A DNA stretch of 63,136 bases from an uncultured Pseudomonadales bacterium (GTDB taxonomy: Bacteria > Patescibacteriota > Microgenomatia > UBA1400 > CG1-02-47-37), in contig CAZVYS010000003.1 in the NCBI GenBank assembly GCA_964630755.1, positions 1 to 63,136 of the forward strand, written 5' to 3'. Positions 7,011-54,239 of this stretch are shown here, piece after piece. A program made the position numbers and the translations under genes. Position 1 is the first letter of the stretch. Every line of letters begins with the position of its first letter. The notes below the pieces were generated by a model, which did not search any database, was not told the DNA's origin, and saw nothing but the letters and a program-made list of their open reading frames with translations.

Positions 7011-7698
7011 AGCCTGTCTCTAGTTTACACTTTTTTCGCCAGTCTTTTACTGGCTTTACTCCAAACTCTTTCAATAAATTCTCAAGATACTCAAGCGGAA
7101 AACCCAATACATTAGTAAAAGAGCCTTTAATTTCTTTTACCAAACTCCCATATCCCGGTAACTGATACCTAATACTATACCCTCCCCCCTTGTCTAACAC
7201 TTCAAACTTTTTTAAATAATCTTCAATAATCTTTTCCTTATAAGCCTTCATCTTCACCTTAGTTTCACACACGCTTAATCTTCCCTCTTCAGATTTAGAA
7301 TCAACCAAAGCTACTCCACACCAAACCGAGTGAGTCTTGCCACCTAAACTCATCAACATCTTCTTGGCTTCTTTTTTATCTCTAGGCTTTCCTATCTGTC
7401 TTCCCTCAAGCTCCACAATCAAATCCGATCCAATAATTAAACTTCTCTCTTCACTTTCCCCTCGGCTTTTACCAATGGTCGAATGGTGAATACCATTCGT
7501 CGAGGATTTTTTGCTAAGTTCACCCGGCGAATGCCGGGGATTGCTAGCCTTTAACATACTAAGTTCCGCCACCAAGTCCTCACCACTATCTGCCTTTATT
7601 TTCGCCTCGTCAACCTTATGCCCAACTACCTTAAAAGGTAAGCCCATCCACTTAAGTAGCTCCTTTCTTCTTGGTGACTCTGAAGCTAAATAGAGCAT
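7000..7698 (-). CDS. maf: Maf-like nucleoside triphosphate pyrophosphatase, carrying an internal repeat-derived insertion
   Basis: MLYLASESPRRKELL N-terminus and IIGSDLIVELEGRQIGKPRDKKEAKKML core. An extra segment SNPRHSPGELSKKSSTNGIHHSTIGKS is encoded by repeat copy A. Confidence 0.85.
   Translation of the reverse strand: MLYLASESPRRKELLKWMGLPFKVVGHKVDEAKIKADSGEDLVAELSMLKASNPRHSPGELSKKSSTNGIHHSTIGKSRGESEERSLIIGSDLIVELEGRQIGKPRDKKEAKKMLMSLGGKTHSVWCGVALVDSKSEEGRLSVCETKVKMKAYKEKIIEDYLKKFEVLDKGGGYSIRYQLPGYGSLVKEIKGSFTNVLGFPLEYLENLLKEFGVKPVKDWRKKCKLETGYER
7471..7539 (+). repeat. GAAT-loop double-hairpin repeat, copy A (inside maf)
   Basis: accaatggt-CGAATGGT gaat ACCATTCG-spacer-CCCGGC gaat GCCGGG. 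Confidence 0.85.
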
Positions 7699-9911: not shown

Positions 9912-9935
9912 TGCAGACAGAAGTGCAGCGTTTTG

Positions 9936-11852
9936 TCATACACTACACTTGCTCCACCCGCATTCCATGCAAATAGCGCAACCCTCCTTTATTTCTAAAC
10001 TGCCCCCGCAATCCATACACATATCCTTATTTACTCTCAACACTTGATCTTCTTTAGATCCATCTCTGTAAATCGTTATCCCTTTACAACCTTGTTTCCA
10101 GGCTTGCAGATAAGCTTTTTTCACCTCATCAACACTCGCTTTCTTAGCAAAATTAATTGTTTTACTCACACTATTATCAAAGTTCTTCTGCCAAGCAGCT
10201 TGAATCTTTACATGATATTCCCAATCCACTTCATGAGTGGTAACAAATACTCGCCTAAATTTTACTGATATTTCTTTAATTTTCCCCATAGATCCCGTAC
10301 TAGCCAACTGACCCAATATTTCCTGTCTTCTTTTTTTATCCTTAACCTGACTCCTTAAAAACTCTTCAAACACTGGGTCAACTATTACCAACTCTCTGGT
10401 CGGCCGATTATCTTTATCATCCTCAAAAAATGTTCTTCTCAAAGTCACCAACGAAAACACCGGCTCTATTCCACTACTGCAATCTGCAAACAAACTAATT
10501 GTTCCTGTTGGCGCTATCATCGTGGTTGCACAATTCCTTCGTCTCTTTCCTCCAGCATAAATACTCACATCATAATTTGGAAAACTACCTCTTTCTTCTC
10601 CTAATTTCTCGGTTTCTCTATCAGCTTCTTTTCTAATAAAATGACTCAATTTCTCGGCTAACTTAACCGCTGCCTGACTGTTATATGCTATTTCTAGTTT
10701 ATAAAGCAAATGGGCAAACCCCATCACTCCTAGCCCAATTCTTCTATTACCCTCCTTAACCATCTTTTCATTTTTCTCCAAAGGATAACTATTCGCCTCA
10801 ATCATATTATCCAAAAACCTTACCCCCAAAGAAATTGACTTCTTAAGTTCCTTATAGTCCACTTCATACCGACCATTGGCCAATTTCTTTACATGATTAG
10901 AAAGCACTATGCTAGTCAAGTTGCAGTTCTCATACGGCAACATGGCTATTTCCCCGCAGGGATTAGTTGTCTCAATCCTTCCTAAGCTTGGCGTTGGGTT
11001 ATCCTTATCCATTGCATCAATAAAAGCCATCCCCGGATCTCCGCTTAAATGGGCTTGCTTGCAAATCTTAAAAAACAACTTATCCGCCCTTATTTTCTTC
11101 ACTACCTCATTAGTTCTAGGATTAACTAAAGCCCACATCTTTTTAGCCTCTACCGCCTTCATAAACTTATCAGTCACCCCCACCGACACATTAAAGTTTT
11201 TTAAATTTCCATCTTCAGCCTTCATCTCAATAAACTCTTCAATATCAGGATGTGTAACATTCAAAATCGCAATATTAGCTCCCTGTCTTTTTGCTCCTTG
11301 TAAAATTTTAGATAAAGCAGCACTAAACGCTTTAATAAAATCAACCGGGCCCGAAGCCGCTCCAATCACATTCTTAACCTTATCCCCATGAGGCCTAATC
11401 TTGGAAAAATTAAAACCAGTTCCTCCATTGTTTTTATGAACCACCGCAGCCTCACCTAATGTTTTAAAAATCGACTGAATACTATCTTCAATCGGCAACA
11501 CAAAACACGCCGCCATCTGTCCTGTTCCCCCTGGATTTCCAGCTTCAAACATAGCCTTTCCACTACAAACAAACTTTTTACTCACCATTCGCTCATAGAA
11601 CAACTCCGCAGTCTCTCTAACTTTACTATCTATAGCCGCAAGGGATGAATACCCCTTGCCCTTTAAACTCTTTGCAAACTTTACCCGGCGAATGCCGGGC
11701 CACAACACTTCAGGTTTAGCCATGTGTTGAGCCACTCGCCACAACATCTCCCCCACGCTCTCTACTAACCGACCCTTTTGATTAGCCATCAAGTATCTCT
11801 TTTGAGTTATCTCTAAGGCAGTTTTGGATTGCTTTGGTTCTATTATCTTCAT
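9936..11852 (-). CDS. nrdJ: class II ribonucleotide reductase paralogue (no ATP-cone), with internal repeat insertion
   Basis: 638 aa with ACFVLPI, TNPCGEIAM, CNLTSIVL and C-terminal CMDCGG...CAICMECG. Repeat copy B encodes the segment WPGIRRVKFAKSLKGKGYSS. Confidence 0.92.
   Translation of the reverse strand: MKIIEPKQSKTALEITQKRYLMANQKGRLVESVGEMLWRVAQHMAKPEVLWPGIRRVKFAKSLKGKGYSSLAAIDSKVRETAELFYERMVSKKFVCSGKAMFEAGNPGGTGQMAACFVLPIEDSIQSIFKTLGEAAVVHKNNGGTGFNFSKIRPHGDKVKNVIGAASGPVDFIKAFSAALSKILQGAKRQGANIAILNVTHPDIEEFIEMKAEDGNLKNFNVSVGVTDKFMKAVEAKKMWALVNPRTNEVVKKIRADKLFFKICKQAHLSGDPGMAFIDAMDKDNPTPSLGRIETTNPCGEIAMLPYENCNLTSIVLSNHVKKLANGRYEVDYKELKKSISLGVRFLDNMIEANSYPLEKNEKMVKEGNRRIGLGVMGFAHLLYKLEIAYNSQAAVKLAEKLSHFIRKEADRETEKLGEERGSFPNYDVSIYAGGKRRRNCATTMIAPTGTISLFADCSSGIEPVFSLVTLRRTFFEDDKDNRPTRELVIVDPVFEEFLRSQVKDKKRRQEILGQLASTGSMGKIKEISVKFRRVFVTTHEVDWEYHVKIQAAWQKNFDNSVSKTINFAKKASVDEVKKAYLQAWKQGCKGITIYRDGSKEDQVLRVNKDMCMDCGGSLEIKEGCAICMECGWSKCSV
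11627..11700 (+). repeat. GAAT-loop double-hairpin repeat, copy B (inside nrdJ paralogue)
   Basis: tatctatagccg-CAAGGGat gaat acCCCTTG-ccctttaaactctttgcaaacttta-CCCGGC gaat GCCGGG. Confidence 0.85.
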
Positions 11853-14394: not shown

Positions 14395-16470
14395 TTAATT
14401 TATCATCGTTTCCGAAAACCGATCAAAATACCTCACCTTCTTATTCGACTCACCAACCTCCATCGCTGGAATTTTGTTCTTTAATACTACTGGTTGTATT
14501 ACAAATGTATCCGCAATCTCAGAAAGGATTGCCACAGCAGCAAAAGACCAGTCCCGAAACAAGCTAAAAAACTGATCACTTCCTTCCTCAATTGTTACCC
14601 CCATCGCCCACTCAGCCCCTCCAACCCATTCTTCCAATCCATCCAAAGCCGGTACAGCCATCGACCATCCCAACTCTTCATATTCAGGAATACTTACCTC
14701 ACTTTCCGGCAACCACTCAAAATCATCCATTTTTGGAATCTCAACCTCACTTACTTCAACCTCTTGCTCACCAACTCCAACACTAGGTCTACTATCTTCT
14801 TCAGTCGCTAATAAAACTCCCCTGTCGCCTTGCTCCTCATCACCCACAACCCAACTCCCACTCAACCCACTATAACTAACGTCTTGACTACTACTTTCAA
14901 CTATCTGTTCCTCGTGGCTGTCTCTCTCTGATAAGTTTTTGTTAACAGTTTCAGTCTCTTCAGTTATGCTTGACTCCATCTCCAAAACCGACTTCTCTCC
15001 TACCCATCCATCTTTTTGCCCTACCGCTACTTGTTCTGTTTCTTTTTGAAAAACCACCTCTCTTCCACTAGGACTTGGACCATCAACTGGCTCTTCAGGC
15101 TCTGGGTCATCAAAATCCTCTTCCTCGGCCACATCCAGCTCTTCATCAACTTCTAATGCTTTAGTCTCCAATGCTTTAGTCACTTGCTCAACTCTACTAA
15201 TCTCTTGAAACAAATCTATTTCTCGACTATCAACCGCCTCATCCACCTGCTTATCAGCTATTCCCTCAAAACTCGCCTGACTTGCTTCTACTGGCCAGTC
15301 AAAAACATCAACTGCTTCAGATAATTCAGGTGTTTCAGATATTCCAGGCAATGCAAATCTAGTTTGAGCCTCTAATGCCATTACGCTTAAAGCATTAATT
15401 CCACCAAACACAAACTCCCCACCATCTAATCTTTGTGTCTCAATCATAAAACCAGAAAACATCTCTGCTCTAAATTCCACTGGCATCATCATTGTTAACA
15501 TCGTCATCTCGCCCAAAAACTCTAATCTCATTTCTTCTAACAAGCCATCTATTAAACTATCAATTTCTTCTAATCCACCTTCTACTGCTCCTTGATAAAT
15601 CTCCCCATTCTCTCCCTTAATTTTCACATCACCTATTTCATTAGATTTTCCCTCCCATTCTCCCAATGTTCCCCCACTCAATCCTCCACCATCACTTCCA
15701 TGACTACTCCTAGTCACAATATGCTCACCCACTTTCAAACCATCTAATTCTGCTTGTTCAATCAAAAACTCGTCAATCCCATCCTTTCCACACAAAAATC
15801 CCGCCCACATAATTTTCTCTCCCATCTCGTCTATTAGCCATTCTTCTCCATCAATCATCTGATATCTAATCCTTTTACCTAAATCCCGGTTATTGCCCTC
15901 TAGCTCATCAACCACCCTTCTATCCCATTCTTCATCGATTTCTCTCATTCCCAACAACTGCCAAGCCTCTACAAACACATCCGGCATCCCATTTCCTACA
16001 TACTCATAAATCATCGGCTCTTTACTCCACTCCTCCACTTCTTCTGAGTATTCTTCAGGTAGTAAAACTCTCTTAATGTTTAAACTTCCTCCTTCATTAA
16101 AAACAATCTCTAAAGCCTTACTTAATCCAGTTAAATTCGCCAACTCATCATCTAGATCCAAAAATCTTATCATCGTCATTCCTGATTCTCTTAGTTCAGA
16201 AAAATCTTCCCAGTCAGCCCCCTCTAGATCCATCACCCAACTCTTGCTCTGCCACTCTTCATCAACTAAATCTAATCTGGTGCTCGTTATCGGTGAATTT
16301 ATTAAATCATCTCTGCTTACTTTTCCTATCTTGTCGATTATTAAGTCCTGCTTATCTGGCTTAATCTCGATTCTCTCCCCTTTTGCCGCAAACATCACCT
16401 GAGGCAAACTATAAAGTTCTTCCACCCCCACCTGGACTTCTATATTAATATTTTTTGCTTCTACTGGCAT
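14395..16470 (-). CDS. highly acidic orphan protein, apparently cobalamin-riboswitch controlled
   Basis: 2.1-kb uninterrupted ORF, very Asp/Glu rich, with no signal peptide or TM visible. ATG at 16470 preferred because the 9 extra codons from the TTG at 16497 are the terminator hairpin of the leader. Confidence 0.7.
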   Translation of the reverse strand: MPVEAKNINIEVQVGVEELYSLPQVMFAAKGERIEIKPDKQDLIIDKIGKVSRDDLINSPITSTRLDLVDEEWQSKSWVMDLEGADWEDFSELRESGMTMIRFLDLDDELANLTGLSKALEIVFNEGGSLNIKRVLLPEEYSEEVEEWSKEPMIYEYVGNGMPDVFVEAWQLLGMREIDEEWDRRVVDELEGNNRDLGKRIRYQMIDGEEWLIDEMGEKIMWAGFLCGKDGIDEFLIEQAELDGLKVGEHIVTRSSHGSDGGGLSGGTLGEWEGKSNEIGDVKIKGENGEIYQGAVEGGLEEIDSLIDGLLEEMRLEFLGEMTMLTMMMPVEFRAEMFSGFMIETQRLDGGEFVFGGINALSVMALEAQTRFALPGISETPELSEAVDVFDWPVEASQASFEGIADKQVDEAVDSREIDLFQEISRVEQVTKALETKALEVDEELDVAEEEDFDDPEPEEPVDGPSPSGREVVFQKETEQVAVGQKDGWVGEKSVLEMESSITEETETVNKNLSERDSHEEQIVESSSQDVSYSGLSGSWVVGDEEQGDRGVLLATEEDSRPSVGVGEQEVEVSEVEIPKMDDFEWLPESEVSIPEYEELGWSMAVPALDGLEEWVGGAEWAMGVTIEEGSDQFFSLFRDWSFAAVAILSEIADTFVIQPVVLKNKIPAMEVGESNKKVRYFDRFSETMIN

Positions 16471-16494
16471 AAAAAAACCTTCCTCGCAGGAAGG
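16471..16494 (-). terminator. intrinsic terminator / RBS-sequestering hairpin of the riboswitch expression platform
   Basis: Minus strand reads CCTTCC-tgcga-GGAAGG followed by TTTTTTT and then ATG. The GGAAGG arm doubles as the only SD-like sequence. Confidence 0.6.
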
Positions 16495-16665
16495 CAATAC
16501 CCTTTATCTCCTCCTGCTCGGGAGAGTCCGACGATATATCAGACTTATCATTTAAAGCTCAGTCTTCTGGCTTGTCCGAAGTTACATCAGACTTACAGTT
16601 GCGGCACAGCTTCGGCATTCCTGCTTCGACCTTAGGCGGGTCACCGAATTCCCTGAATCTTTAAT
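16471..16665 (-). promoter_or_regulatory. cobalamin (B12) riboswitch
   Basis: Minus strand: AGGGAATTCGGTGA...CCGAAGCTGTGCCGCAACTGTAAG...ACAAGCCAGAAGACTGAGC. This matches the conserved AGGGAA, GGTGA, GCxGxxCCGCAACTGTAA and B12-box AGCCAGgAGAC elements. Confidence 0.75.
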
Positions 16666-16676
16666 TTAATTGTCAA

Positions 16677-17294
16677 TTATAATTCTGTTTTACTTATCAC
16701 TAATATTTGCTCTAAAACTTGCCTTTGCTCTTCTCCTACTTTTTCATTAATAATCATTATCACTTCCTGATGTTTCCTTGCAGCCTTAGAAAGCTTTTCT
16801 CTAAATTCTGTTTTTGACTCATCAAGTTCAGAAGATAACATCATTGCTTGCTCTAAATATTTTTCCGCCTTTGTTAAGGTTGTTACTCCCAAACTTACCT
16901 TTCCACCTTCAACTAAAGCCCAACCTGCCCCCAAACGCTTATCAGCATATAAAAGCAGTTTTTCTGCCTTTGATTCTGTTTTAGTTGTTAACCACAACTG
17001 CACTTTATCTCTAACCATCTTTAACCAATACATCGGATGGTCTGGTAAAATCCCTGGATACGGTAAATAATAATCAACTGACTCTTGAGAAACTTCCATT
17101 AATGGAGCCTTAGTAATCACCATGCTATTACTTTCAGTTTCTTCTTCTATCACTACCTCTTCCTCCACTTCATGTACTTCATGTTCATGAGCTACTGCTA
17201 GGCTTGTTGCTGACACCCTTAACACTCCTACTCCAAACAGCAACCCCAACACTACTATATATACAGGCATCTTTATCTCATCATGCTTTCTCAT
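16677..17294 (-). CDS. membrane-anchored or secreted hypothetical protein (DUF5667-like)
   Basis: 205 aa with an N-terminal hydrophobic segment and the motif YYLPYPGILPDHPMYWLKMVRDKV followed by helical repeats. Confidence 0.55.
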   Translation of the reverse strand: MRKHDEIKMPVYIVVLGLLFGVGVLRVSATSLAVAHEHEVHEVEEEVVIEEETESNSMVITKAPLMEVSQESVDYYLPYPGILPDHPMYWLKMVRDKVQLWLTTKTESKAEKLLLYADKRLGAGWALVEGGKVSLGVTTLTKAEKYLEQAMMLSSELDESKTEFREKLSKAARKHQEVIMIINEKVGEEQRQVLEQILVISKTEL

Positions 17295-17911: not shown

Positions 17912-17950
17912 AGTTAACCGCTATTGTGCCATATTTGCTACAATACGTCT

Positions 17951-20278
17951 ATGCCTGAATCCAAGCAAAGTCTTAAAACTTCTATCAATAACTTGAAGGC
18001 AACAACAAAGCTAAAAATCTTTAAACTAACAAAAATTCTTAAGACTTCTATCCATAGCTTAAGGGTGAATACCCTTAAAACAATTAAAAACCTTGCAAAC
18101 TTTAGGGGACGAATATCCCCTCGTCAATTTGCTTTTATCATTATTCTTCTAGTTGGTTTAATCATCTTCATGTTCACCATTTTAAAAGACCTCCCTTCTC
18201 CATCCAGGCTTTCATCTGATGAATTTCCCGTCTCTACTAAAATTCTTGATCGTAATGGTCAAATTCTTTACGAAATTTATGCTGATCAAAACAGAACTCC
18301 AATTAAAATCAAAGATCTGCCAGACTATGTATTAAAAGCCACCATTTCTATTGAAGACAAAAACTTTTACAAACATCATGGCTTTGATCTGCAAGGAATC
18401 TCTCGGGCTTTTTTAAATACTCTATTTAAACAAAATCTCCAAGGCGGCTCCACCATCACCCAACAACTAGTCAAAACCACTCTTTTATCACCGGAAAGAA
18501 CCATCAAGAGAAAGCTCAGAGAAGCTATTTTGGCCTTAGCTACCGAGCTTCGTTACTCTAAAGACGAAATTATTCAGATGTATCTTAACCACGTTCCTTA
18601 TGGTGGCACTGCCTATGGCATCGAGCAAGCCAGCTTAACCTATTTTAATAAATCAGCTAAGGACTTAAAACTAGAAGAAGCCGCTCTTTTAGCTGGCCTT
18701 CCCCAGGCGCCTACCCGGTACTCCCCTTTTGGTTCTAATCCCGACGCTGCTAAAAATCGTCAAGCCAATGTTTTAAAACGCATGTTCGAAGATGACTACA
18801 TTGACTCTGATCAACTCCAATCCGCCTTAGACACCAAACTTGAATACGCTCCTCAATCTCAAAACATCCTCGCTCCCCACTTCTCTCTTTTTATCAAAGA
18901 TCTTTTAGTTGAAAAATATTCTCAGCCCGTCGTAGAAAAAGGTGGTTTAATCGTCACTACCTCTCTTGATCTAGACATTCAAAAGCAAGCCGAAATCATT
19001 ATCGCCACCGAAAGCGCCAAACTAGAATCAGCTAACGTCAGTAACGCAGCCGCCCTAGTTACCAAACCAAGAACTGGAGAAATCCTCGCCATGGTTGGCT
19101 CCCGTGACTACTTTAACGCTGAAATCGATGGTAATGTTAATATTACTACTCGACTTCGTCAACCCGGTTCTTCTATCAAGCCCATCAACTACGCTGTTGG
19201 TTTAATCAAAGGCCATACTCCAGCCACTATGTTTCTTGACGTTCCCTCTTGCTTTAATGCTCCAGGTCAACCCTCTTCATATTGCCCCAAAAACTACGAC
19301 AATACCTTTCACGGCCCAACCCATATGCGTTTTGCTCTTGGCAACTCCTACAACATCCCCGCCGTCAAAATGCTTGCCAGTAATTCAGTTGAGGCCATGG
19401 TCGCCACTGCCTCAGCCATGGGAATTACATCTTATCAAGATCCAAAAAACTATGGCCTATCCCTTACCCTTGGTGGTGGTGAAGTTCGCATGATCGACAT
19501 GGCAGTTGCTTTTGGAGTTTTCAGCAATCAAGGCTTAAAAGTCGACCTTACTCCTATTCTTAGCGTTAAAGACTATCATGGCAACGTCTTAGAAAGCATT
19601 AATCTTGAAACCGAAATACCAGCCGGCGAAAAAGCCATTTCCCCAGAAGTAGCCTACCTTATCTCCCACATGTTGCTCGATAACAATGCCCGAGTCGGCG
19701 CTTTTGGTTCAAGCTCTGAGCTAGTCATCCGTGACCACACTGTTTCCGCTAAAACCGGCACCACCGATGACCTTCGAGATAACTGGACGATTGGCTTTAC
19801 CCCTTCGTACTTAGTCTCAACTTGGGTCGGCAACAACGACAACACCCCCATGCACCCCTACTTAGTCTCTGGTGTTTCTGGCGCCGCTCCCATCTGGCAC
19901 GACATCATGGAATATGTTCTTAAAGATGAACCTGACGAATGGCCCAAAAAACCAGACACTATTATTGGCCTTCAAGTCTGTAACCTAACTGGCCTTAGAC
20001 CCAATCCCGAATCCCCTTGCGAAACTAGATACGAATACTTTATCAAAGGCCAAGAACCAAACATGGAACCAATTCTTAAACGTGACATCTGGATCGACAA
20101 ATCCACCAAACGCCCACCCGTTCAAGGCAAAACCGACGACCTTGAGTTACAAGAACATATTGTTGTCTCAGACCCCGTCCAAAAAGACTATTGTGTTGAT
20201 TGTGAAAAAGAAATTGATGAGGAAGGTAAAATCAAAGAAGCTCCTTACACCATTAACATCTACCCGCCGGAAGAATAA
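17951..20278 (+). CDS. class A penicillin-binding protein (transglycosylase/transpeptidase), PBP1A-like
   Basis: GT51 motifs EDKNFYKHHG and GGSTITQQLVK, plus transpeptidase motifs SSIK, SYN and KTGTT. TGcTACAAT-N6-ATG precedes 17951. Confidence 0.9.
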   Translation: MPESKQSLKTSINNLKATTKLKIFKLTKILKTSIHSLRVNTLKTIKNLANFRGRISPRQFAFIIILLVGLIIFMFTILKDLPSPSRLSSDEFPVSTKILDRNGQILYEIYADQNRTPIKIKDLPDYVLKATISIEDKNFYKHHGFDLQGISRAFLNTLFKQNLQGGSTITQQLVKTTLLSPERTIKRKLREAILALATELRYSKDEIIQMYLNHVPYGGTAYGIEQASLTYFNKSAKDLKLEEAALLAGLPQAPTRYSPFGSNPDAAKNRQANVLKRMFEDDYIDSDQLQSALDTKLEYAPQSQNILAPHFSLFIKDLLVEKYSQPVVEKGGLIVTTSLDLDIQKQAEIIIATESAKLESANVSNAAALVTKPRTGEILAMVGSRDYFNAEIDGNVNITTRLRQPGSSIKPINYAVGLIKGHTPATMFLDVPSCFNAPGQPSSYCPKNYDNTFHGPTHMRFALGNSYNIPAVKMLASNSVEAMVATASAMGITSYQDPKNYGLSLTLGGGEVRMIDMAVAFGVFSNQGLKVDLTPILSVKDYHGNVLESINLETEIPAGEKAISPEVAYLISHMLLDNNARVGAFGSSSELVIRDHTVSAKTGTTDDLRDNWTIGFTPSYLVSTWVGNNDNTPMHPYLVSGVSGAAPIWHDIMEYVLKDEPDEWPKKPDTIIGLQVCNLTGLRPNPESPCETRYEYFIKGQEPNMEPILKRDIWIDKSTKRPPVQGKTDDLELQEHIVVSDPVQKDYCVDCEKEIDEEGKIKEAPYTINIYPPEE
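18049..18122 (+). repeat. GAAT-loop double-hairpin repeat, copy C (PBP N-terminal tail)
   Basis: tatccatagc-TTAAGGGT gaat ACCCTTAA-aacaattaaaaaccttgcaaacttt-AGGGGA cgaata TCCCCT. Confidence 0.85.
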
Positions 20279-20283
20279 AACTC

Positions 20284-20356
20284 TAATAATTTCTGAATGG
20301 CGAATGCCATTCAAACTTCTGAAACCTTTGCAAGCTTTAGGGAGCGAATGCTCCCC
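20284..20356 (+). repeat. GAAT-loop double-hairpin repeat, copy D (intergenic)
   Basis: TGAATGGC gaat GCCATTCA-aacttctgaaacctttgcaagcttta-GGGAGC gaat GCTCCC. Confidence 0.9.
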
Positions 20357-20376
20357 CTTTTTCTATTCTTATAGGG

Positions 20377-20389: not shown

Positions 20390-22942
20390 ATGGTTAAAAG
20401 TAGACAAAATAGTCTATTATCCAACCCTTTAGCTTGGGTTGGTTTTGTATTGGAAACAATTGGTCGATCTACCTATAAATCACTCTTCTTCTTAATTAAA
20501 TTAACTTTCAAAGTTATCTTATCTACTATTAATTTCTTGAGGATGAATATCCTCAAATCTCTTAAGTCCTTTAACCGAATTTATCAAGGTTTACCCGGAG
20601 AATTTCGGGCGAATGCCGGAGTTCAATTAATTAAACTCTTGTCAGAAGTTAAAAACATCTTTAACAACGCTTTTAAACAAGCCTCTGATCAATTATCTGT
20701 TAAGCAACTCAAACTCAAATACCCTAAAGTCCGAAAACTTTTACCAGAAGTTAAATGGCGAATGCCATTTATCCATAAATTCTTTAACCGAATTCACCCT
20801 GCGACTGCAGGGCAAAAATTAGCTCTCAGTTTTTTCTTTATTTCTATCAGTCTCTTTTACTGGTTTATCATAAAAGATCTCCCTAAACCGACTGATCTTA
20901 CCAATCGCTTACCCACTCTTTCAACTAAAATCTACGACCGAAACCAAAAACTTCTCTTTACCTTTTACAAAGATCAAAACCGCACTCTTATTTCCCTAGA
21001 CGACATTCCCGAGCATTTTAAACAAGCCACTCTAGCTATCGAAGACCAAGACTTTTACCGCCACAATGGTTTCTCATGGCCAGGTATTTTTAGATCCTTA
21101 GAACAAATCGTTTTTAACCAACAACTTCAGGGCGGTTCTACCATCACTCAACAGCTAATTAAAAACGCACTTCTGACTCCCGAACGAACCATGAAACGAA
21201 AGCTCAAGGAGCTTATCTTAAGCATTGAAGTCGAACTTTTATATTCTAAAGATGAAATTCTGGAAATGTACTTTAACGAAGTAGCATACGGCGGTACCGC
21301 TTATGGAGCTGAACAAGCTAGTCAAACCTATTTTGGTAAATCCATCAAAGATGTCACTTTAGCCGAAGCTGCTCTTTTAGCTGGCCTGCCTGCCTCGCCT
21401 ACCACCTACTCCCCTTTTGGCTCTAATCCTCATTTGTCAGCTTATCGTCAACATCAAGTCTTAAACCGAATGGTCAAAGAACAATACATTGCCCCCTTAG
21501 AAGCCGAGTTAGCCAAAGATCAAAAAATTAAACTAGCTCCACAATATACCAATATCAAGGCTCCCCACTTTGTTATGTATGTAAAACAACTACTCGTTGA
21601 CCAATTTGGAGAGGCTTTAGTCGAACAAGGCGGCTTAACTGTCACCACCTCTCTCGATCTTAATCTGCATAATCAAGTTCAACAAATAGTCACTGATGAA
21701 ATTCAAAAAGTAGCCATGTTAAACATTTCTAACGGAGCTGCTTTAGTAACCAATCCTCAAACCGGTGAAATTTTAAGCATGGTTGGCTCTCGAAACTATT
21801 TTGACACTGATAAAGACGGCCAAGTTAATCTCACCACTGCCCTCAGGCAACCTGGCTCTGCTATCAAACCAGTCAACTATTCAGTTGCCCTTGAAAATGG
21901 CTACACAGCCGCCACCGTTATTAATGACTCTCCTATCACTTATGATATCGCCGGTTCAAAACCTTACTCTCCCCGTAACTACGATGGCCGCTTTCATGGC
22001 AACGTCACTCTTCGTTCTGCTTTAGCTAACTCCTACAATATCCCGGCTGTTAAAGTTTTAGCTAGCTACGGCGTTGACAAAATGATCGAACAAGGCCAAA
22101 AACTAGGCATCACCACCTGGAATCAACCCGAACGATATGGTTTATCTCTTACCCTAGGTGGCGCCGAAGTCAAAATGACTGACCTGGCAGTTGTTTTCAG
22201 CACCTTAGCCAATCAAGGCAATAAAATTGATCTTCATCCTATCCTAAAAGTTACTGACGCCAAAGGAAAAACTCTTTTAAACTTTGACTGCAACAAAACC
22301 ATCGCCGAATCCATTCCTCGTTCTATCAATAGCTTAGGGGTGAATACCCCTAAAACTACTAAATCTTTGCAGAATTTACCCGGCGAATGCCGGGCGAGCC
22401 AACCAAATCAAATCCTTAATCCACACACAGCTGCCATCTTAACCAACATTCTTTCCGACCCTCTCGCTCGAACTCCCGCCTTTGGCACTCGATCTTACCT
22501 AAACATTCCAGGGCATGTTGTGGCTGTTAAAACCGGCACCACCAATGACAAACGAGACAACTGGACTATCGGTTACACCACTGATTATCTTGCTGCTGTC
22601 TGGGTTGGCAATAACGACAACACCCCTATGTCTCAAGTTGCTTCTGGCATCACTGGTGCTTCTCCCATCTGGCATAACATCATGAACAAAGTCTTAGAAA
22701 ATCAACAATCACACCAATTCTCTTATCCTACTGACTTACTAAAAGCCGACATCTGCCCCATCACCGGCCAACTATCTTGTGAAGGCTGCGGTGGAAAAAT
22801 TGAATACTTTGTCAAAGGCACCGAGCCCAAACTCCGCTGCAAACCTGAATACATTCAACAACTAAAAGACGACCAAGCTAAAAAAGATCAGGAAGAGGCA
22901 GAAAAAAGAAACCAACTTCTCGAGGGAATTTCTACCAACTAA
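20390..22942 (+). CDS. class A penicillin-binding protein, second tandem paralogue, carrying repeat insertions
   Basis: EDQDFYRHNG, GGSTITQQLIK, SAIK, SYN and KTGTT. A long N-terminal tail holds repeat copies E and F, and copy G lies inside the transpeptidase region. An alternative start at the ATG inside copy F cannot be excluded. Confidence 0.9.
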   Translation: MVKSRQNSLLSNPLAWVGFVLETIGRSTYKSLFFLIKLTFKVILSTINFLRMNILKSLKSFNRIYQGLPGEFRANAGVQLIKLLSEVKNIFNNAFKQASDQLSVKQLKLKYPKVRKLLPEVKWRMPFIHKFFNRIHPATAGQKLALSFFFISISLFYWFIIKDLPKPTDLTNRLPTLSTKIYDRNQKLLFTFYKDQNRTLISLDDIPEHFKQATLAIEDQDFYRHNGFSWPGIFRSLEQIVFNQQLQGGSTITQQLIKNALLTPERTMKRKLKELILSIEVELLYSKDEILEMYFNEVAYGGTAYGAEQASQTYFGKSIKDVTLAEAALLAGLPASPTTYSPFGSNPHLSAYRQHQVLNRMVKEQYIAPLEAELAKDQKIKLAPQYTNIKAPHFVMYVKQLLVDQFGEALVEQGGLTVTTSLDLNLHNQVQQIVTDEIQKVAMLNISNGAALVTNPQTGEILSMVGSRNYFDTDKDGQVNLTTALRQPGSAIKPVNYSVALENGYTAATVINDSPITYDIAGSKPYSPRNYDGRFHGNVTLRSALANSYNIPAVKVLASYGVDKMIEQGQKLGITTWNQPERYGLSLTLGGAEVKMTDLAVVFSTLANQGNKIDLHPILKVTDAKGKTLLNFDCNKTIAESIPRSINSLGVNTPKTTKSLQNLPGECRASQPNQILNPHTAAILTNILSDPLARTPAFGTRSYLNIPGHVVAVKTGTTNDKRDNWTIGYTTDYLAAVWVGNNDNTPMSQVASGITGASPIWHNIMNKVLENQQSHQFSYPTDLLKADICPITGQLSCEGCGGKIEYFVKGTEPKLRCKPEYIQQLKDDQAKKDQEEAEKRNQLLEGISTN
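20524..20621 (+). repeat. GAAT-loop double-hairpin repeat, copy E (expanded second hairpin)
   Basis: tactattaatttc-TTGAGGAT gaat ATCCTCAA-spacer-CCCGGA gaat TTCGGG overlapping TCGGGC gaat GCCGGA. Confidence 0.8.
20750..20813 (+). repeat. GAAT-loop double-hairpin repeat, copy F (degenerate second loop)
   Basis: AAATGGC gaat GCCATTT-atccataaattctttaaccgaattca-CCCTGC gact GCAGGG. Confidence 0.75.
22324..22395 (+). repeat. GAAT-loop double-hairpin repeat, copy G (inside PBP transpeptidase region)
   Basis: tatcaatagc-TTAGGGGT gaat ACCCCTAA-aactactaaatctttgcagaattta-CCCGGC gaat GCCGGG. Confidence 0.9.
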
Positions 22943-23016
22943 CTATTAATTTCTTGAGGGTGAATACTCTCAAATCAACTAAATCCTTTGCAGTCTTTAG
23001 GGGGCGGATGCCCCCC
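22942..23016 (+). repeat. GAAT-loop double-hairpin repeat, copy H
   Basis: actattaatttc-TTGAGGGT gaat ACTCTCAA-atcaactaaatcctttgcagtcttta-GGGGGC ggat GCCCCC. Confidence 0.85.
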
Positions 23017-23992
23017 ACCACTCCCAGACAACTCGACTAATTTTTGGCAACACCTCCTGCGCCTCACCATCGTTAACCCCTGAACTCATCATGCAGATTA
23101 CATAAGGCTCATCTGCATAAACTATCCCACAATCATTCACAATCCCTGATTCTGATCCAAACTTGTGAACTACTTTTACTCCACTTGGCACCCCCGCTGT
23201 AATCCGATCTTCATTAACTGTCATAGTTAAGCTTTCAAATAACTTTTCCTTGCTTTTTTTACTAATAAACTCATTATTATATAAATCTTTAAACATCTCT
23301 CCTGCCTCTTTAGTTGTCATTTCTTCTGGTAATTTTTCATTAACCCACTTACTCATTAACTGCGCAGCCATATTATCACTTTGATTAGCCATCAGCTCTG
23401 CTATTTCTTGATAAGTATACTCCGTACCTATTGGTTGATTTTGCATGCTTCCAGTTCCATACTCCCATCGGTCAACTTCTTTTAAAACATATAGCTCCTC
23501 CGAATTAATCTTCCCGCTATCAACTTGCCTATAATACTCCACCAAAACTGGCATCTTAGAAACTGATGCTGCAGAAATTGTTTTATTAGCATTAATCACA
23601 AACCCTTCTTCTGTTACTAAATTCTCCACCCATACTCCATAATCACCACTCAAATCTTTTAACAATTCTTCCACTGCCTCTTCCACGTCTTGTTTTTCTT
23701 TAATCGTTACCTTAAAACCAATCACCTCAGACACATCTTTAGCATCTCCAACTGGCTTTAAAATAGTAATTGTTTCAGGATTATTCCAGTCTTTCCACCA
23801 ATCCCTAACTTCTCTTGGTAAATAAAACATTAGCCCCAAAACTAAGGTAATTAACAATCCTACTCCTGTCTGTTTTCTTGATCCTTCTTCCCCGATCGTT
23901 TTTCTTCTCCTTTTTCTTCTCCGCTTTATTCCCTCTTCCCCCTCCACAAAATCCTTCTCCTGTAACTTCTCTTTATTTTCTTTATTCATCAC
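22997..23992 (-). CDS. class A beta-lactamase-like serine hydrolase, membrane anchored
   Basis: 331 aa with a basic N-terminus plus TM helix and SxxK motif ASVSK in a beta-lactamase-like fold region. The last residues (WWGASAP) are encoded by repeat copy H. Confidence 0.7.
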   Translation of the reverse strand: MMNKENKEKLQEKDFVEGEEGIKRRRKRRRKTIGEEGSRKQTGVGLLITLVLGLMFYLPREVRDWWKDWNNPETITILKPVGDAKDVSEVIGFKVTIKEKQDVEEAVEELLKDLSGDYGVWVENLVTEEGFVINANKTISAASVSKMPVLVEYYRQVDSGKINSEELYVLKEVDRWEYGTGSMQNQPIGTEYTYQEIAELMANQSDNMAAQLMSKWVNEKLPEEMTTKEAGEMFKDLYNNEFISKKSKEKLFESLTMTVNEDRITAGVPSGVKVVHKFGSESGIVNDCGIVYADEPYVICMMSSGVNDGEAQEVLPKISRVVWEWWGASAP

Positions 23993-24005: not shown

Positions 24006-24072
24006 CATTAATCTAGGGGGCGAATGCCCCCTACACCTTTAAAATTACTTATTTACCCGGCGAATGCCGGGC
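24006..24072 (+). repeat. GAAT-loop double-hairpin repeat, copy I
   Basis: cattaatc-TAGGGGGC gaat GCCCCCTA-cacctttaaaattacttattta-CCCGGC gaat GCCGGG. Confidence 0.85.
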
Positions 24073-24339
24073 TAACAACTTATCAATTGTCTGCTTGTAT
24101 CTTAACTTCATCTTTTTTCTCCCATCACTACTCTTCAAATATTTTTCTCTAGCTCCAGCCTCTTTTTTATACCAATAAAACTCATATCCAACTAACTTCA
24201 ATGGCCTCCTACTTCTCGTTGATATCACTTTCCCTTCAATGTGATTTTTAAACCTCATCTTCACATCTTCAGTTATTCCCACATAAAACTGCTTATCTCT
24301 TAACGAGATTAACACATACACAAAATACATTCTATTCAT
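24049..24339 (-). CDS. small GIY-YIG nuclease family protein (UPF0213/SLX1-like URI domain)
   Basis: MYFVYVLISLRDKQFYVGITEDVKMRFKNHIEGK is a classic GIY-(X)-YVG...R..H motif. 96 aa. Confidence 0.85.
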   Translation of the reverse strand: MNRMYFVYVLISLRDKQFYVGITEDVKMRFKNHIEGKVISTRSRRPLKLVGYEFYWYKKEAGAREKYLKSSDGRKKMKLRYKQTIDKLLARHSPGK

Positions 24340-25307
24340 TTACCTGGCGAATGCCGGGCTAACCATTTATTAGCTTCTGGTTCAAACAACAAGCCTTTTT
24401 TAGGCCCAAAATGTTTTACTACCGATGCCCCATTAACCATTCCTAACTTCAAGGCCTTATCAATAGAATAGCCTTTAATCAATCCAGCCACCAATCCACA
24501 ACCAAAAGCGTCTCCGGCCCCAGTCTCCTCTACTGTTTTAACCTTCATTCCTGGTAACTCAACCACTTTATTGTCTTTTATCACCGTTGCTCCCTTTCTC
24601 CCTTCAGTCATTGCCACAGTCTTTACTCCTAACTTTTTTAAATCCAAAACTATCGCTTCCTTATTTTTAAACTCATGTCTAGTTAATCTTCCAGCCTCTT
24701 GTCGATTTAAAAGCAGCGCCTCTACTTGAGGCAAATAAGCTCTCAACTTATCTTCCGCTTGAATTTCTTTACTGCCTGGATTCAAGGCCACTCTAATGCC
24801 TTTTTTTTGAGCCTCCCTCACAATCTTTGAAAGCAAGTTAAAATCTCCCCCCAAACTAGAAACATAAAACCAATCTGGCTCTAGCTTATCCCAAGCCACC
24901 TTAGATAAAGATAGCTTGCTACTAGCTCTTCGATAAACCAAGGCTGATCTTCCTCCTTCTTTACTTACTAACATAGTTGAATAACTAGTCGGTTCATCTA
25001 CTTGCTGAATATACAAAGGACTCACTCCTTCTTTTTTCAGTTCTTTTCTCACAAACAAACCCCAATCGTCTTTACCTACACAGCAAACCGCCGCAGTCTG
25101 AACCAGAAGTCTCTCAAAGCCCACCGCCGTATTAGTTCCTCCCCCTCCAGTAGTAATCACCTGCTTTTCTATATTAATCTTGCCTCCATACACCTCGCAC
25201 AAAGCCACTCCTGTTGGGCTCGAAGAAGTATTTATCATCTTAAAATCCGAAGATTGTAAATACACATCTACAAAAGCACTACCAAAAGTCACTACATCAA
25301 ACTTCAT
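24336..25307 (-). CDS. PfkB-family carbohydrate/nucleoside kinase
   Basis: N-terminal GG motif (TTGGGGTNTAVGF) and C-terminal TGAGDAFGCGLVAG anion-hole motif. Confidence 0.85.
   Translation of the reverse strand: MKFDVVTFGSAFVDVYLQSSDFKMINTSSSPTGVALCEVYGGKINIEKQVITTGGGGTNTAVGFERLLVQTAAVCCVGKDDWGLFVRKELKKEGVSPLYIQQVDEPTSYSTMLVSKEGGRSALVYRRASSKLSLSKVAWDKLEPDWFYVSSLGGDFNLLSKIVREAQKKGIRVALNPGSKEIQAEDKLRAYLPQVEALLLNRQEAGRLTRHEFKNKEAIVLDLKKLGVKTVAMTEGRKGATVIKDNKVVELPGMKVKTVEETGAGDAFGCGLVAGLIKGYSIDKALKLGMVNGASVVKHFGPKKGLLFEPEANKWLARHSPGK
24338..24363 (+). repeat. solo second-hairpin copy J
   Basis: atttaCCTGGC gaat GCCGGGctaac, 25/26 identical to 24051-24076. Confidence 0.85.
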
Positions 25308-25970: not shown

Positions 25971-26040
25971 TACCAATAGCCGAATGATGAATATCATTCG
26001 CCTAAATCACTTAACTAAGTTTACCCTGCGAATGCAGGGC
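25971..26040 (+). repeat. GAAT-loop double-hairpin repeat, copy K
   Basis: taccaatagc-CGAATGAT gaat ATCATTCG-cctaaatcacttaactaagttta-CCCTGC gaat GCAGGG. Confidence 0.9.
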
Positions 26041-27024
26041 TAACTCCATCATTCTAATTACATAGCCCCATTCATTATCATACCAGCTCAAGATCTTCAC
26101 CAAGTCTCCGTCAATAACTCTAGTCATATCCATATCTACCAACGATGAAAACTCACTCCCAACTATGTCCGATGACACAATTGGCTTATCAGTTACTCCC
26201 AAAACTCCTTTTAAATCCCCATCAGCCGCTAATGCCAATGCCTTATTTACCTCTTCTTTTGTCGTTTTTTTCTCAGTTAAAAAAGTAAAATCTGTTAAAG
26301 AACCTGTTAAAATCGGCACTCTCACCGAAATGCCATCAAACAAACCTTTCACTTCTTTTATTACTTTGCCTGTCGTTTCAGCTGCTCCAGTTGTTGTTGG
26401 CACAATATTAAAACAGCCTGCCCTACCTCTTCGTAAATCTTTGTGAGAGTTATCTACCATTCTTTGACCAGAAGTTACTGCGTGAATGGTTGTCATGCCA
26501 GCTTTTTTTATCCCAAACTCTTTTAATATCACTTTCACTACTGGACCAACGCAATTTGTCGTACAACTTGCATTAGAAAACACCTTTTTGTCCTTTGCTT
26601 CATTCTCATTAATCCCCATCATAAAAATACCTTCATCTGTTCCTTTAGGCGGGGCTGACAAAAGCACCCTCTTAGCTCCAGCCTCAAGATGATCATCAGC
26701 TTCTTCAATAGTTCTAAACTTGCCAGTGCATTCCAAAACCAAATCCACTCCCATTTTCTTCCACGGTAAATCTTTAGGCTCGCTGATCGCCATTACCGGA
26801 ATCTCTACAGAATCTACTACTAAATTATCTCCTTTGGCTTTTACTTTTCCTTGATACTTGCCGTAAACCGTATCGTACTCAAACAAATGAGCCCAACCAG
26901 CTACATCTACTCGACCAGATGTATTTATAGCCACAAATTCCATCTTATCTCGATGATGTTTTAACCCCGCTCTCAAAGCTAATCTCCCAATTCTACCAAA
27001 TCCATTAATAGCTACTTTTAACAT
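26011..27024 (-). CDS. gap: glyceraldehyde-3-phosphate dehydrogenase
   Basis: INGFGRIGR NAD-binding motif, active-site SNASCTTNC, WYDNEWGY. The C-terminal residues are repeat-encoded. Confidence 0.93.
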   Translation of the reverse strand: MLKVAINGFGRIGRLALRAGLKHHRDKMEFVAINTSGRVDVAGWAHLFEYDTVYGKYQGKVKAKGDNLVVDSVEIPVMAISEPKDLPWKKMGVDLVLECTGKFRTIEEADDHLEAGAKRVLLSAPPKGTDEGIFMMGINENEAKDKKVFSNASCTTNCVGPVVKVILKEFGIKKAGMTTIHAVTSGQRMVDNSHKDLRRGRAGCFNIVPTTTGAAETTGKVIKEVKGLFDGISVRVPILTGSLTDFTFLTEKKTTKEEVNKALALAADGDLKGVLGVTDKPIVSSDIVGSEFSSLVDMDMTRVIDGDLVKILSWYDNEWGYVIRMMELALHSQGKLS

Positions 27025-49958: not shown

Positions 49959-50032
49959 TATCAATTGCTTTGAGGGGTGAATACCCCTCAATCAATAAAT
50001 TCTTTGCAAGATTTACCCGGCGAATGACGGGA
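49959..50032 (+). repeat. GAAT-loop double-hairpin repeat, copy L
   Basis: tatcaattgc-TTTGAGGGGT gaat ACCCCTCAA-tcaataaattctttgcaagattta-CCCGGC gaat GACGGG (one stem mismatch). Confidence 0.85.
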
Positions 50033-50075
50033 CACAGCGAACTAGGCGGCTAGCCACGCCTAGACTCGCTTGTGT

Positions 50076-54018: not shown

Positions 54019-54087
54019 CACCAATAGCTGAATGATGAATATCATTCATCGAGTTTTTTAACCGAGTTTATCCCGCGAATGCGGGAC
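54019..54087 (+). repeat. GAAT-loop double-hairpin repeat, copy M
   Basis: caccaatagc-TGAATGAT gaat ATCATTCA-tcgagttttttaaccgagtttat-CCCGC gaat GCGGG. Confidence 0.9.
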
Positions 54088-54239
54088 CAAATCAATACCC
54101 CAAACACCACCACACTTACTACCAAAATACTCCACTCGCCCACATAATTAGGCTCATTTCCAGTCGTAATATCATCCAAAGCCAAAAAATCTAAAACCAG
54201 TAGCCCCACTACCAGTAACTTAACTAACCACTTTTTCAT
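54042..54239 (-). CDS. small two-TM membrane protein
   Basis: 65 aa with a good SD (GAAGGAG). The C-terminus is encoded by repeat copy M. Confidence 0.5.
   Translation of the reverse strand: MKKWLVKLLVVGLLVLDFLALDDITTGNEPNYVGEWSILVVSVVVFGVLIWSRIRGINSVKKLDE

Follow-up and report, generated by a model that had tools for sequence, protein, structure and literature searches.

What keeps a very small nuclease gene between two almost identical copies of a hairpin-forming repeat, and does the nuclease have a share in the spread of these repeats? This question is raised by a stretch of DNA of 63,136 nucleotides (contig CAZVYS010000003.1 of GenBank assembly GCA_964630755.1, positions 1 to 63,136; in the following, the window is this whole stretch), which was deposited as DNA of an uncultured Pseudomonadales bacterium and is placed by GTDB in the Patescibacteriota. 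It encodes a minimal GIY-YIG nuclease on the minus strand (24049..24339), located between the genes for a PfkB-family sugar kinase (24336..25307, minus strand, assigned by Pfam) and a beta-lactamase-like protein (bla-like gene, 22997..23992, minus strand), its downstream neighbor. The answer that we favor, and that we regard as moderately likely, is that the nuclease gene is a selfish mobile gene of the SLX1/UPF0213 type accompanied by hairpins, that it usually resides at tRNA genes and that the window carries a derived copy.

The open reading frame (ORF) of the nuclease comprises 96 codons, or about 93 when counted from the second ATG (MYFVY, 24330-24328), at which the homologues start; its first ATG is overlapped by the stop codon TGA of the PfkB gene. 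It matches Pfam family PF01541 with E=4.7e-14 and 52.9 bits (cut-off 22.6), residues 4-76 of the protein covering positions 1-76 of the 78 profile positions. The catalytic set FVY (Y8), YVG (Y19, G21), R29, H33 and E65 is conserved among 25 homologues, with G21, R29, H33 and E65 being invariant and Y8 and Y19 nearly so. In profile searches against solved structures the best matches are the UPF0213 proteins BH0048 and EF2693 (PDB 1zg2, 1.8e-12; 1ywl, 5.3e-11), followed by SLX1 (~1e-4) and the homing endonuclease I-TevI (0.0097), and from the matches to 1zg2 and 1ywl an alpha/beta GIY-YIG fold can be inferred. The protein consists of a catalytic domain of ~80 residues plus a tail encoded by the repeat, with no auxiliary domain. 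NCBIfam gave just a partial, sub-threshold match to a group I intron endonuclease model. A link to phages or defense systems did not emerge either: PHROG gave no match, the PADLOC matches were insignificant and a tblastn search with the nuclease against 50,697 phage records was without a match.

The two bracketing 26-mers, ATTTACCCGGCGAATGCCGGGCTAAC downstream (24051-24076) and ATTTACCTGGCGAATGCCGGGCTAAC upstream (24338-24363), are identical at 25 of 26 positions, and their likeness reaches over ~38 nt at 87%. With up to three mismatches allowed, the 26-mer is found four times in the window vs. zero times expected from shuffled sequences, and the 16-nt hairpin core has 11 matches vs. 0.14 expected by chance. 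An earlier sequence-only reading of this DNA had assigned the nuclease to the UPF0213/SLX1 type, had described the 26-mers as near-identical direct repeats bracketing its ORF and had noticed that they supply nuclease and PfkB with the same C-terminus; it had further regarded them as hairpin 2 of a dispersed repeat family. All of this was borne out. The hairpin encodes the last eight codons of the nuclease (LARHSPGK) and its stop codon, PfkB ends in LARHSPGK-stop as well, and the 26-mers correspond to the second hairpin (hp2) of a two-hairpin element of ~65-75 nt. The window holds 13 copies, i.e., 12 full elements and the solo hp2 at 24338; the count of ten copies in 18-26 kb given before is to be corrected, as nine of the 13 lie between 18 and 26.1 kb.

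In plus-strand direction, the parts of the element are a first hairpin (hp1; stem-TGAATA-stem), a linker of ~22-27 nt (commonly ..CTTTGCAAAnTTTA) and hp2 (CCCGG-CGAATG-CCGGG). The full copy downstream of the nuclease ORF (24012..24074, plus strand), whose hp2 arm constitutes the downstream 26-mer, has hp1 at ~24014-24033 (core GGGGGC-GAAT-GCCCCC), a 22-nt AT-rich linker and hp2 at 24056-24071. Upstream of the ORF there is the solo hp2 alone (24338..24363, plus strand; core 24343-24358, CCTGGCGAATGCCGGG), which encodes the C-terminus and the stop codon of PfkB and is followed, in the sense of the nuclease gene, by TAAATGAATAGAATG. In an alignment of 18 element copies from the window and four other loci, 98.8% of the cells allow pairing, compensatory changes occur at 13 of the 14 pairs, the covariation score is reached by none of 500 shuffles and the GAAT of the loop is invariant, which together indicates that the element is under structural selection. 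A known RNA family was considered as the identity of the element and rejected, since Rfam gave no match, neither at the gathering threshold over the full window nor at E<=1 over 17.9-26.2 kb. Neither a terminal inverted repeat nor a flanking duplication, the marks of a miniature inverted-repeat transposable element (MITE), is conserved among the aligned copies, although a dedicated search for target-site duplications was not part of this work. All window copies have one absolute orientation, including six located in or beside two plus-strand genes for penicillin-binding proteins (PBPs), and across nine sources GAAT lies on the C-rich strand in 43 of 45 hairpins, whatever the gene direction. 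Because the orientation is uniform across both gene directions and follows the C-rich strand, it tracks strand asymmetry and not transcription. As an observation on the strands themselves, the plus-strand GC skew is ~-0.4, extreme and even over 1-63136, and ~-0.25, still negative, across the plus-strand PBP genes; in the related loci L007, L008, L012-L014, L065, L066 and L009 the skew of the gene-sense strand amounts to +0.26 to +0.43.

The history of the junction between pfkB and the bla-like gene can be followed in relatives. In locus L079, whose PfkB is 78% identical, the bla-like gene follows directly, 13 nt after pfkB, and there is neither a nuclease gene nor such a hairpin, and L080 and L009 contain different inserts at this junction. 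The PfkB homologues end in ..EPExxKWLKK, and only the window copy has the ending KWLARHSPGK. As the gene is missing in L079, the two other loci carry other inserts and the relatives of PfkB end in KWLKK, this comparison, which the sequence-only reading had proposed, indicates that the nuclease gene is secondary and not ancestral at this site. The repeat family is represented in L009, L079 and L080 by at most one remnant (in L009, one in 10.5 kb). L009 also encodes a 214-aa protein of the Y1_Tnp (IS200/RAYT) type at 8358-9002 beside the syntenic PBP genes, a place at which the window has no such gene.

The two flanks of the nuclease gene in the window differ in their state. The full element at 24012-24074 folds as single-stranded DNA with -17.8 kcal/mol (z -5.7); the solo upstream hp2 has a mismatch in its stem, reaches -3.1 kcal/mol (z -0.3) and folds no better than shuffled sequence. 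If 39 nt comprising the linker, hp1 and TGAAT are removed from an element of the type found in L011, the result equals the upstream sequence of the window save one base, and the endpoints of this gap are AAAT/GAAT microhomologies. We infer from this match that a full element once stood on either side of the gene and that 39 nt were later lost from the upstream element. This proposed loss would also account for the solo hp2 and for the tail common to PfkB and the nuclease.

The closest homologue of the nuclease, with 84% identity, is found in a Beckwithbacteria assembly (L007/L011, also L008 and L065) in an unrelated gene context; a metagenome scan with the single window protein returned one locus only, a copy of the L007 arrangement. 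Upstream of the gene in L007/L011 there are two copies in tandem of an element almost like that of the window: a 56-nt stretch of hp2, linker and hp1 differs at two positions between the upstream element there and the downstream element of the window (24012-24074). The homology of the gene units starts directly after the hairpin, at T[A/G]AATGAATAGAATG. In L066/L067 (58% identity, between EamA and DUF5654 genes) copies of hp2 stand on both sides of the gene and a full element lies farther upstream, and in L012, L013 and L014, as in L011, elements flank the gene on one side. It was suggested before that relatives be surveyed for flanking repeats, and the association indeed recurs in L066/L067, in L011-L014 and in dozens of distant genomes, so that it is evidently not a local accident. 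The window, L011-L014 and L065-L072 constitute a subclade that is located off tRNA genes and is coupled to the multiplied two-hairpin element. Three side observations concern these and related loci. An 835-aa protein in L007 (501-3008) has faint matches to intein and LAGLIDADG profiles and might represent a second selfish element near the nuclease gene. In L071 (~1250-1300) hairpins are nested in the loop of another hairpin, inserted after ATTCG, and in L043 (~4383-4442) there is an insert inside the first hairpin of a double hairpin. The nested hairpins and this insert suggest that hairpin loops themselves serve as insertion sites.

The wider family was collected with an 11-sequence alignment as query from one genome per species, yielding 54 loci with relatives of 41-84% identity that span many lineages of the candidate phyla radiation (CPR) as well as Syntrophaceae/Smithella; some organism labels (Pseudomonadales, Methanoregula) are probably binning errors. 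In 35 of the 54 loci one or more perfect 6-bp GC-rich hairpins are present within 120 nt upstream of the gene (two or more in 21), and the hairpin density in this interval is 27 times that of the remaining locus sequence. In more than ten loci the sole hairpin of the type stem-GAAT-stem within ~8 kb stands 18-80 nt upstream of the gene. About 20 loci have a double hairpin composed of a first hairpin hpA (YCCSGC-ATNC-GCSGGR), CG, a second hairpin hpB (CCCSGC-GNAT-GCSGGG) and CG. A strict scan for paired hairpins over 370 kb placed ~30 of 31 canonical double hairpins within 600 nt of a GIY-YIG gene. In gene sense, window hp2 (CCCGGC-ATTC-GCCGGG) equals the hpA consensus, and homology of the window element and the double hairpin is plausible. 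That the hairpins are palindromic scars of flanking target DNA was considered as well and rejected, their stems being conserved across different tRNA targets and genomes.

The position of these genes shows what the usual target of the family is. In 39 of the 54 loci the GIY-YIG gene is followed within 50 nt by the start of a co-oriented tRNA gene, and in 46 such a gene is present within ~350 nt. These tRNAs are mainly tRNA-Ser, with all four isoacceptors being represented, next to tRNAs for Tyr, Asp, Arg, Pro and Gln. A 5' piece of the downstream tRNA is duplicated upstream of the gene in 25 loci, several of the duplicates being 100% identical; usually it comprises positions 1 to ~71, i.e., up to the T-loop, in Syntrophaceae/Smithella positions 1-37, in L049 1-34 and in L017 1-19. 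In most of these 25 loci a double hairpin stands exactly in a tRNA loop of the duplicated piece; in the junctions read it is placed in the loop that ends this piece, as in GGTTCG^AATCC (T-loop), ATTCG^GGTTC (anticodon loop of tRNA-Pro), CTTGA^AAACC (anticodon loop of tRNA-Ser) and CCCG^GGTTAAC (D-loop), with the double hairpin at the caret. After each junction 5-9 more tRNA bases, a short leader and the ATG follow. The units read have ~340-440 bp, and the GIY-YIG ORF takes up nearly all the space from the hairpins to the tRNA. L033, L043 and L049 have further double hairpins, which lie in 3' tRNA fragments beyond the intact tRNA. Long local tRNA duplications also occur where a second double hairpin is lacking. 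In L037 (~4344-4540) three tandem units directly follow an intact tRNA-Ser(CGA), each consisting of the 5' half of the T-loop, a double hairpin, the 3' half of the T-loop and the tRNA 3' end including CCA. L039, L044, L045, L051 and L064 show another arrangement, with the GIY-YIG gene located between two different intact tRNA genes (~3900-4350). Judged from these positions, tRNA genes are the usual home of the family and the window copy, away from tRNA genes, is derived; no tRNA remnant was found beside the window gene, and the only tRNA gene of the window is a tRNA-Ile gene at 2156-2230.

Empty and filled sites in Smithella resolve the parts of the element. The loci L073, L074, L076 and L077 consist of serS followed by a plain tRNA-Ser(TGA) gene, with no nuclease gene and no double hairpin; their SerRS proteins are 98% (L073) or 92-94% (L074, L076, L077) identical to that of L043. 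In L043 the site is filled, and the element lies between serS and tRNA-Ser(GCT). The order there begins with the 5' part of the resident tRNA (positions 1-37, with the D-loop variant of L073), the double hairpin, AAACC with a short leader and the nuclease gene. It continues with an intact tRNA-Ser(TGA) of another allele, resembling L076 in D-loop and variable arm, 32 nt and GCGGGTTCG, and ends with a second double hairpin, the 3' end of the resident tRNA and a downstream spacer as in L073. This order means that double hairpins form the boundaries of the element, that its cargo is the nuclease gene plus a replacement tRNA and that the resident tRNA was split by it. The opposite assignment, in which the element carries the upstream tRNA fragment, was rejected for L043, where the fragment matches the resident allele and the intact tRNA is foreign; in L030 and L031, too, each upstream fragment matches the local tRNA. 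These two loci belong to one genome, and each duplicates its own local tRNA, the nuclease genes being only ~75% identical. Empty and filled sites among near-identical genomes demonstrate recent mobility of the family, and the notion of a mobile unit of nuclease and hairpins, put forward from the sequence of the window, is supported by these sites and by the absence of the gene in L079. The presence/absence polymorphism is clear for the family in Smithella; for the window locus the comparison with L079 is made at only 78% PfkB identity.

These data can be assembled into the following scheme. The nuclease gene would travel with GC-rich hairpins of the form stem-C-ATTC-G-stem (in gene sense) and, in most lineages, would settle immediately upstream of a tRNA gene, mainly tRNA-Ser, where the element may split or duplicate the resident tRNA and put the double hairpin into one of its loops (the D-loop, the anticodon loop or, at TTCG^AATCC, the T-loop). 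At least once it would have brought a replacement tRNA. In a Beckwithbacteria-like lineage the gene may have left the tRNA genes and become linked to the two-hairpin element with the AT-rich linker, which may have multiplied to the 13 copies in 63 kb, including in-frame sites within ORFs; in the window lineage the hairpin repeats themselves might have become landing sites. At the locus described here the gene would have been inserted at the pfkB/bla junction with element copies on both sides, the upstream copy decaying after the loss of 39 nt.

Regarding the activity of the nuclease, it probably recognizes stem-loop or cruciform DNA and not a long sequence, since it contains no DNA-binding domain and SLX1, its nearest characterized relative, is structure-specific. 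CGAAT is common to the hairpin loop with its closing pair (C-GAAT-G) and to the T-loop TTCGAAT. Because of this shared motif, and since the phage protein SegB recognizes the T-psi-C stem-loop, we propose that the nuclease may recognize or nick T-arm-like stem-loops as structured DNA. Breaks repaired from the GIY-bearing copy could result in homing from hairpin to hairpin, and the 12 GIY-less copies might be non-autonomous targets or derivatives of the nuclease element. The sequence-only reading had already put forward that the nuclease acts on the hairpin and spreads it as RAYT does with REP elements; this part of its interpretation stays a hypothesis. The strand bias would fit hairpin formation on one template strand in replication.

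Several points weigh against this scheme. Within the 96-aa protein no separate sequence-specific DNA-binding domain was found, which makes the nuclease unlike characterized GIY-YIG homing endonucleases. In 19 of the 54 homologous loci the gene has no hairpin upstream, so it can be retained without one. The five loci with the gene between two different intact tRNA genes lack the upstream double hairpin, L039 having one 160 nt downstream. The layouts differ as well: the loops of the window element have the same sense and are separated by the linker of ~22-27 nt, whereas the tRNA-type double hairpin has opposed loops and a 2-nt spacer. The proposed link between the nuclease and a hairpin substrate is drawn from co-localization only. 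Moreover, the intact replacement tRNA retains the loops that are interrupted in the fragments, so that a simple model of tRNA-loop cutting needs an immunity mechanism. Finally, all comparison sequences are metagenome assemblies, and with 63 kb of the genome being visible, an enzyme mobilizing the repeats could lie elsewhere.

Some of these observations would be expected if the hairpins were cis-acting expression elements of the nuclease gene, acting as terminator or insulator against upstream transcription, as mRNA-stabilizing or processing stem-loop or as an autoregulatory operator of the I-TevI kind, the dispersed copies being REP-like transcript elements spread by other means. The distance from the hairpin end to the ATG is nearly fixed (10-13 nt in the window, L011, L013, L015 and L066), many window copies are located at gene 3' ends and supply the stop codon, and I-TevI is established to repress its own expression via an operator resembling its homing site. 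Yet double hairpins also occur apart from the gene, in 3' tRNA fragments and in the L037 tandem array, and they stand exactly at the junctions of rearranged tRNAs. In the window the orientation of the copies is independent of the direction of transcription, several copies lie within ORFs and Rfam gave no match, and we therefore consider a purely cis-acting role rather unlikely.

It is less likely still that the hairpins are mobilized by another enzyme encoded outside the window, e.g., a Y1 HUH transposase of the RAYT/IS200 type, with the hairpins merely offering safe, recombination-prone landing sites to an unrelated selfish GIY-YIG gene. Single-strand transposition by HUH enzymes (IS200/IS605, REP) typically gives strand bias, and GAAT on the C-rich strand in 43 of 45 hairpins is a bias of this kind; the relative L009 encodes its Y1_Tnp protein next to the syntenic PBP genes. 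However, L009 possesses this protein and has one hairpin remnant in 10.5 kb, and a tblastn search of the 63-kb window with the L009 Y1_Tnp protein detected no Y1_Tnp/RAYT gene. In distant genomes the double hairpin is almost confined to the neighborhood of the GIY-YIG gene, whose ORF nearly fills the hairpin-to-tRNA space of the ~340-440-bp units. Chance adjacency of a housekeeping UPF0213 gene to two repeat copies, for which speak the 13 copies in 63 kb, a repeat at about one fifth of the gene junctions and the ordinary chromosomal nature of genes for UPF0213 proteins, e.g., YhbQ of E. coli, is strongly disfavored and highly improbable, as the arrangement is seen a second time, independently, in L066/L067, the hairpins at more than ten distant loci are without another of their kind within 8 kb, relatives lack the gene at the syntenic site and the family shows empty and filled sites.

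A selfish GIY-YIG gene with a hairpin companion at tRNA genes has its closest parallel in phage T4, where SegB, a GIY-YIG homing endonuclease encoded in a tRNA gene cluster, recognizes a conserved T-psi-C stem-loop motif (PMC2330249). Both are free-standing genes among tRNA genes, contain the GIY-YIG domain and show presence/absence polymorphism between related genomes, and the T-psi-C motif in the SegB site corresponds to GGTTCG^AATCC, into which the double hairpin is inserted in most of the relatives located at tRNA genes. SegB is a phage protein of ~220 aa with a separate DNA-binding part. The nuclease described here is a bare domain of 85-96 aa encoded chromosomally in CPR bacteria and Syntrophia, and no homologue of it was found among the 50,697 phage records. 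A hairpin module, a partial tRNA duplication and a replacement tRNA are all missing from SegB, and the window copy, unlike SegB, lies away from tRNA genes.

REP elements and their RAYT transposases, reportedly treated by Nunvar in 2010, by Bertels and Rainey in 2011 and by Ton-Hoang in 2012, resemble the window in having a nuclease gene between members of a family of short hairpins, with many dispersed enzyme-less copies, covarying stems and a strong strand bias. RAYT is a Y1 HUH transposase, whereas here a GIY-YIG nuclease, known from sequence alone, is found, and the REP copies around RAYT are inverted pairs, whereas the flanking copies are direct here. The Rickettsia palindromic elements, reportedly described by Ogata and colleagues in 2000, share the in-frame insertion into coding genes (in the window, Maf, ribonucleotide reductase and PBPs are hosts) but lack an associated nuclease, and their sequences and host phylum are unrelated. 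The double-hairpin elements and mobile GIY-YIG ORFs of fungal mitochondria (Allomyces), on which Paquin, Laforest and Lang are said to have reported in 1994 and 2000, are alike in two respects: two adjacent GC-rich hairpins constitute a small mobile unit, and the mobile GIY-YIG ORF carries a replacement for the displaced part of its target gene, leaving a duplicated fragment behind. They differ in being organellar, in having no established enzymatic link between double hairpin and GIY-YIG protein and in showing neither a sequence relationship nor targeting of tRNA loops.

By sequence profile the nearest proteins are those of the SLX1/UPF0213 group (PDB 1zg2, 1ywl, 6seh, 7cq2). SLX1 acts in a structure-specific manner, cleaving DNA that is branched or forms stem-loops; unlike SLX1, the nuclease of the window is without a RING domain or an SLX4 partner. 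To our knowledge, bacterial UPF0213 proteins of the YhbQ type are widespread and have no agreed function, and we know of no role of UPF0213 proteins in mobile elements, none being found in searches of the full-text literature either. Prokaryotic Slx1-like proteins consist of the minimal domain, with a fusion to a tRNA methyltransferase in one case (Dunin-Horkawicz et al., 2006; PMC1564403). Searchable full texts yielded no account of minimal GIY-YIG genes that are linked to tRNA genes and accompanied by double hairpins. In none of SegB, REP/RAYT, the Rickettsia elements and the fungal double hairpins does a bare SLX1-like domain come together with ends made of double hairpins, with insertion into loops of tRNAs and with a replacement tRNA.

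We tentatively propose, with less assurance than the mobility of the gene as such, that these elements might represent a new class of prokaryotic mobile elements, characterized by an SLX1-like nuclease of 85-96 aa as the only protein, double-hairpin ends, tRNA-arm targets and a replacement tRNA, from which a CPR derivative with a REP-like family would have arisen. The target in this class would be the stem-loop DNA of the T, anticodon or D arm of tRNA genes. The Beckwithbacteria-like derivative would have switched to its own T-arm-like hairpins as targets, and this switch may have spawned a REP-like family spreading strand-specifically, even in frame into ORFs; the class would then be the GIY-YIG counterpart of REP/RAYT. 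One clade of UPF0213 proteins emerges here as the product of a mobile gene whose DNA companion (the double hairpin) and target class (tRNA gene loops) are defined and for which clean empty and filled sites exist. If the nuclease acts on the hairpins, this would constitute a second, mechanistically different partnership of nuclease and repeat beside REP/RAYT, and homing would be guided by structure in a protein that has no DNA-binding domain. It would also account for the way in which hairpin repeats and peptide tails (ARHSPGK and related ones) remodel gene ends and interiors in the small genomes of the CPR. The question of the substrate is directly testable with the 96-aa protein and a few oligonucleotides.

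The remaining copies of the two-hairpin element, all on the plus strand, are distributed over gene ends, gene interiors and intergenic regions. Next to the nuclease locus, a copy at the 3' end of the GAPDH gene (25979..26042) has an hp2 that encodes the C-terminus ..ELALHSQGKLS-stop; as this C-terminus and stop codon come from an hp2 copy (26011-26044), gap, pfkB and the nuclease gene are three consecutive genes ending in the repeat. On the other side a copy is located between a PBP gene and the bla-like gene (22952..23018). The PBP gene 20390..22942 contains one copy in frame in the transpeptidase region (22332..22397; ..GVNTPKTTKSLQNLPGECRASQ..), with a net insertion of ~15 aa relative to the L009 orthologue, and two in its 5' region (20750..20815 and 20535..20620), the latter with an extra insert and with its hp1 part conserved in the L009 orthologue. 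A further copy separates the two PBP genes (20292..20358), and one (18057..18123) is read in frame where the PBP gene 17924..20278 encodes its N-terminal tail. The second ribonucleotide reductase paralogue contains a copy in frame (11637..11702; WPGIRRVKFAKSLKGKGYSSLAA), and its Pfam match to Ribonuc_red_lgN extends over 101 residues vs. 74 profile positions. Similarly, Maf contains an in-frame copy (7478..7541; NPRHSPGELSKKSSTNGIHHST) and its Pfam match covers 211 residues vs. 186 profile positions, so that the in-frame copies in Maf, in this reductase and in the PBP gene 20390..22942 add residues relative to the Pfam profiles or the orthologue. The in-frame copies at 7478-7541, 11637-11702, 18057-18123 and 22332-22397 use at least three reading frames and both coding orientations. 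The last two copies are intergenic (49968..50034) and at the 5' end of a dTDP-sugar epimerase gene (54027..54089).

The window as a whole has a low G+C content of ~0.40 and its genes are located mainly on the minus strand; the nearest relatives of its proteins are found in Candidatus Beckwithbacteria and other Patescibacteria. The large subunit of ribonucleotide reductase is encoded by three tandem paralogues (7686-13750), of which only the first has an ATP-cone domain. A 700-aa ORF (14395..16497), for which Pfam gave no match at E<=1e-5, is preceded by a cobalamin riboswitch on the minus strand (16540-16677). The tRNA-Ile gene has the anticodon TAT, an uncommon bacterial means of reading AUA codons.

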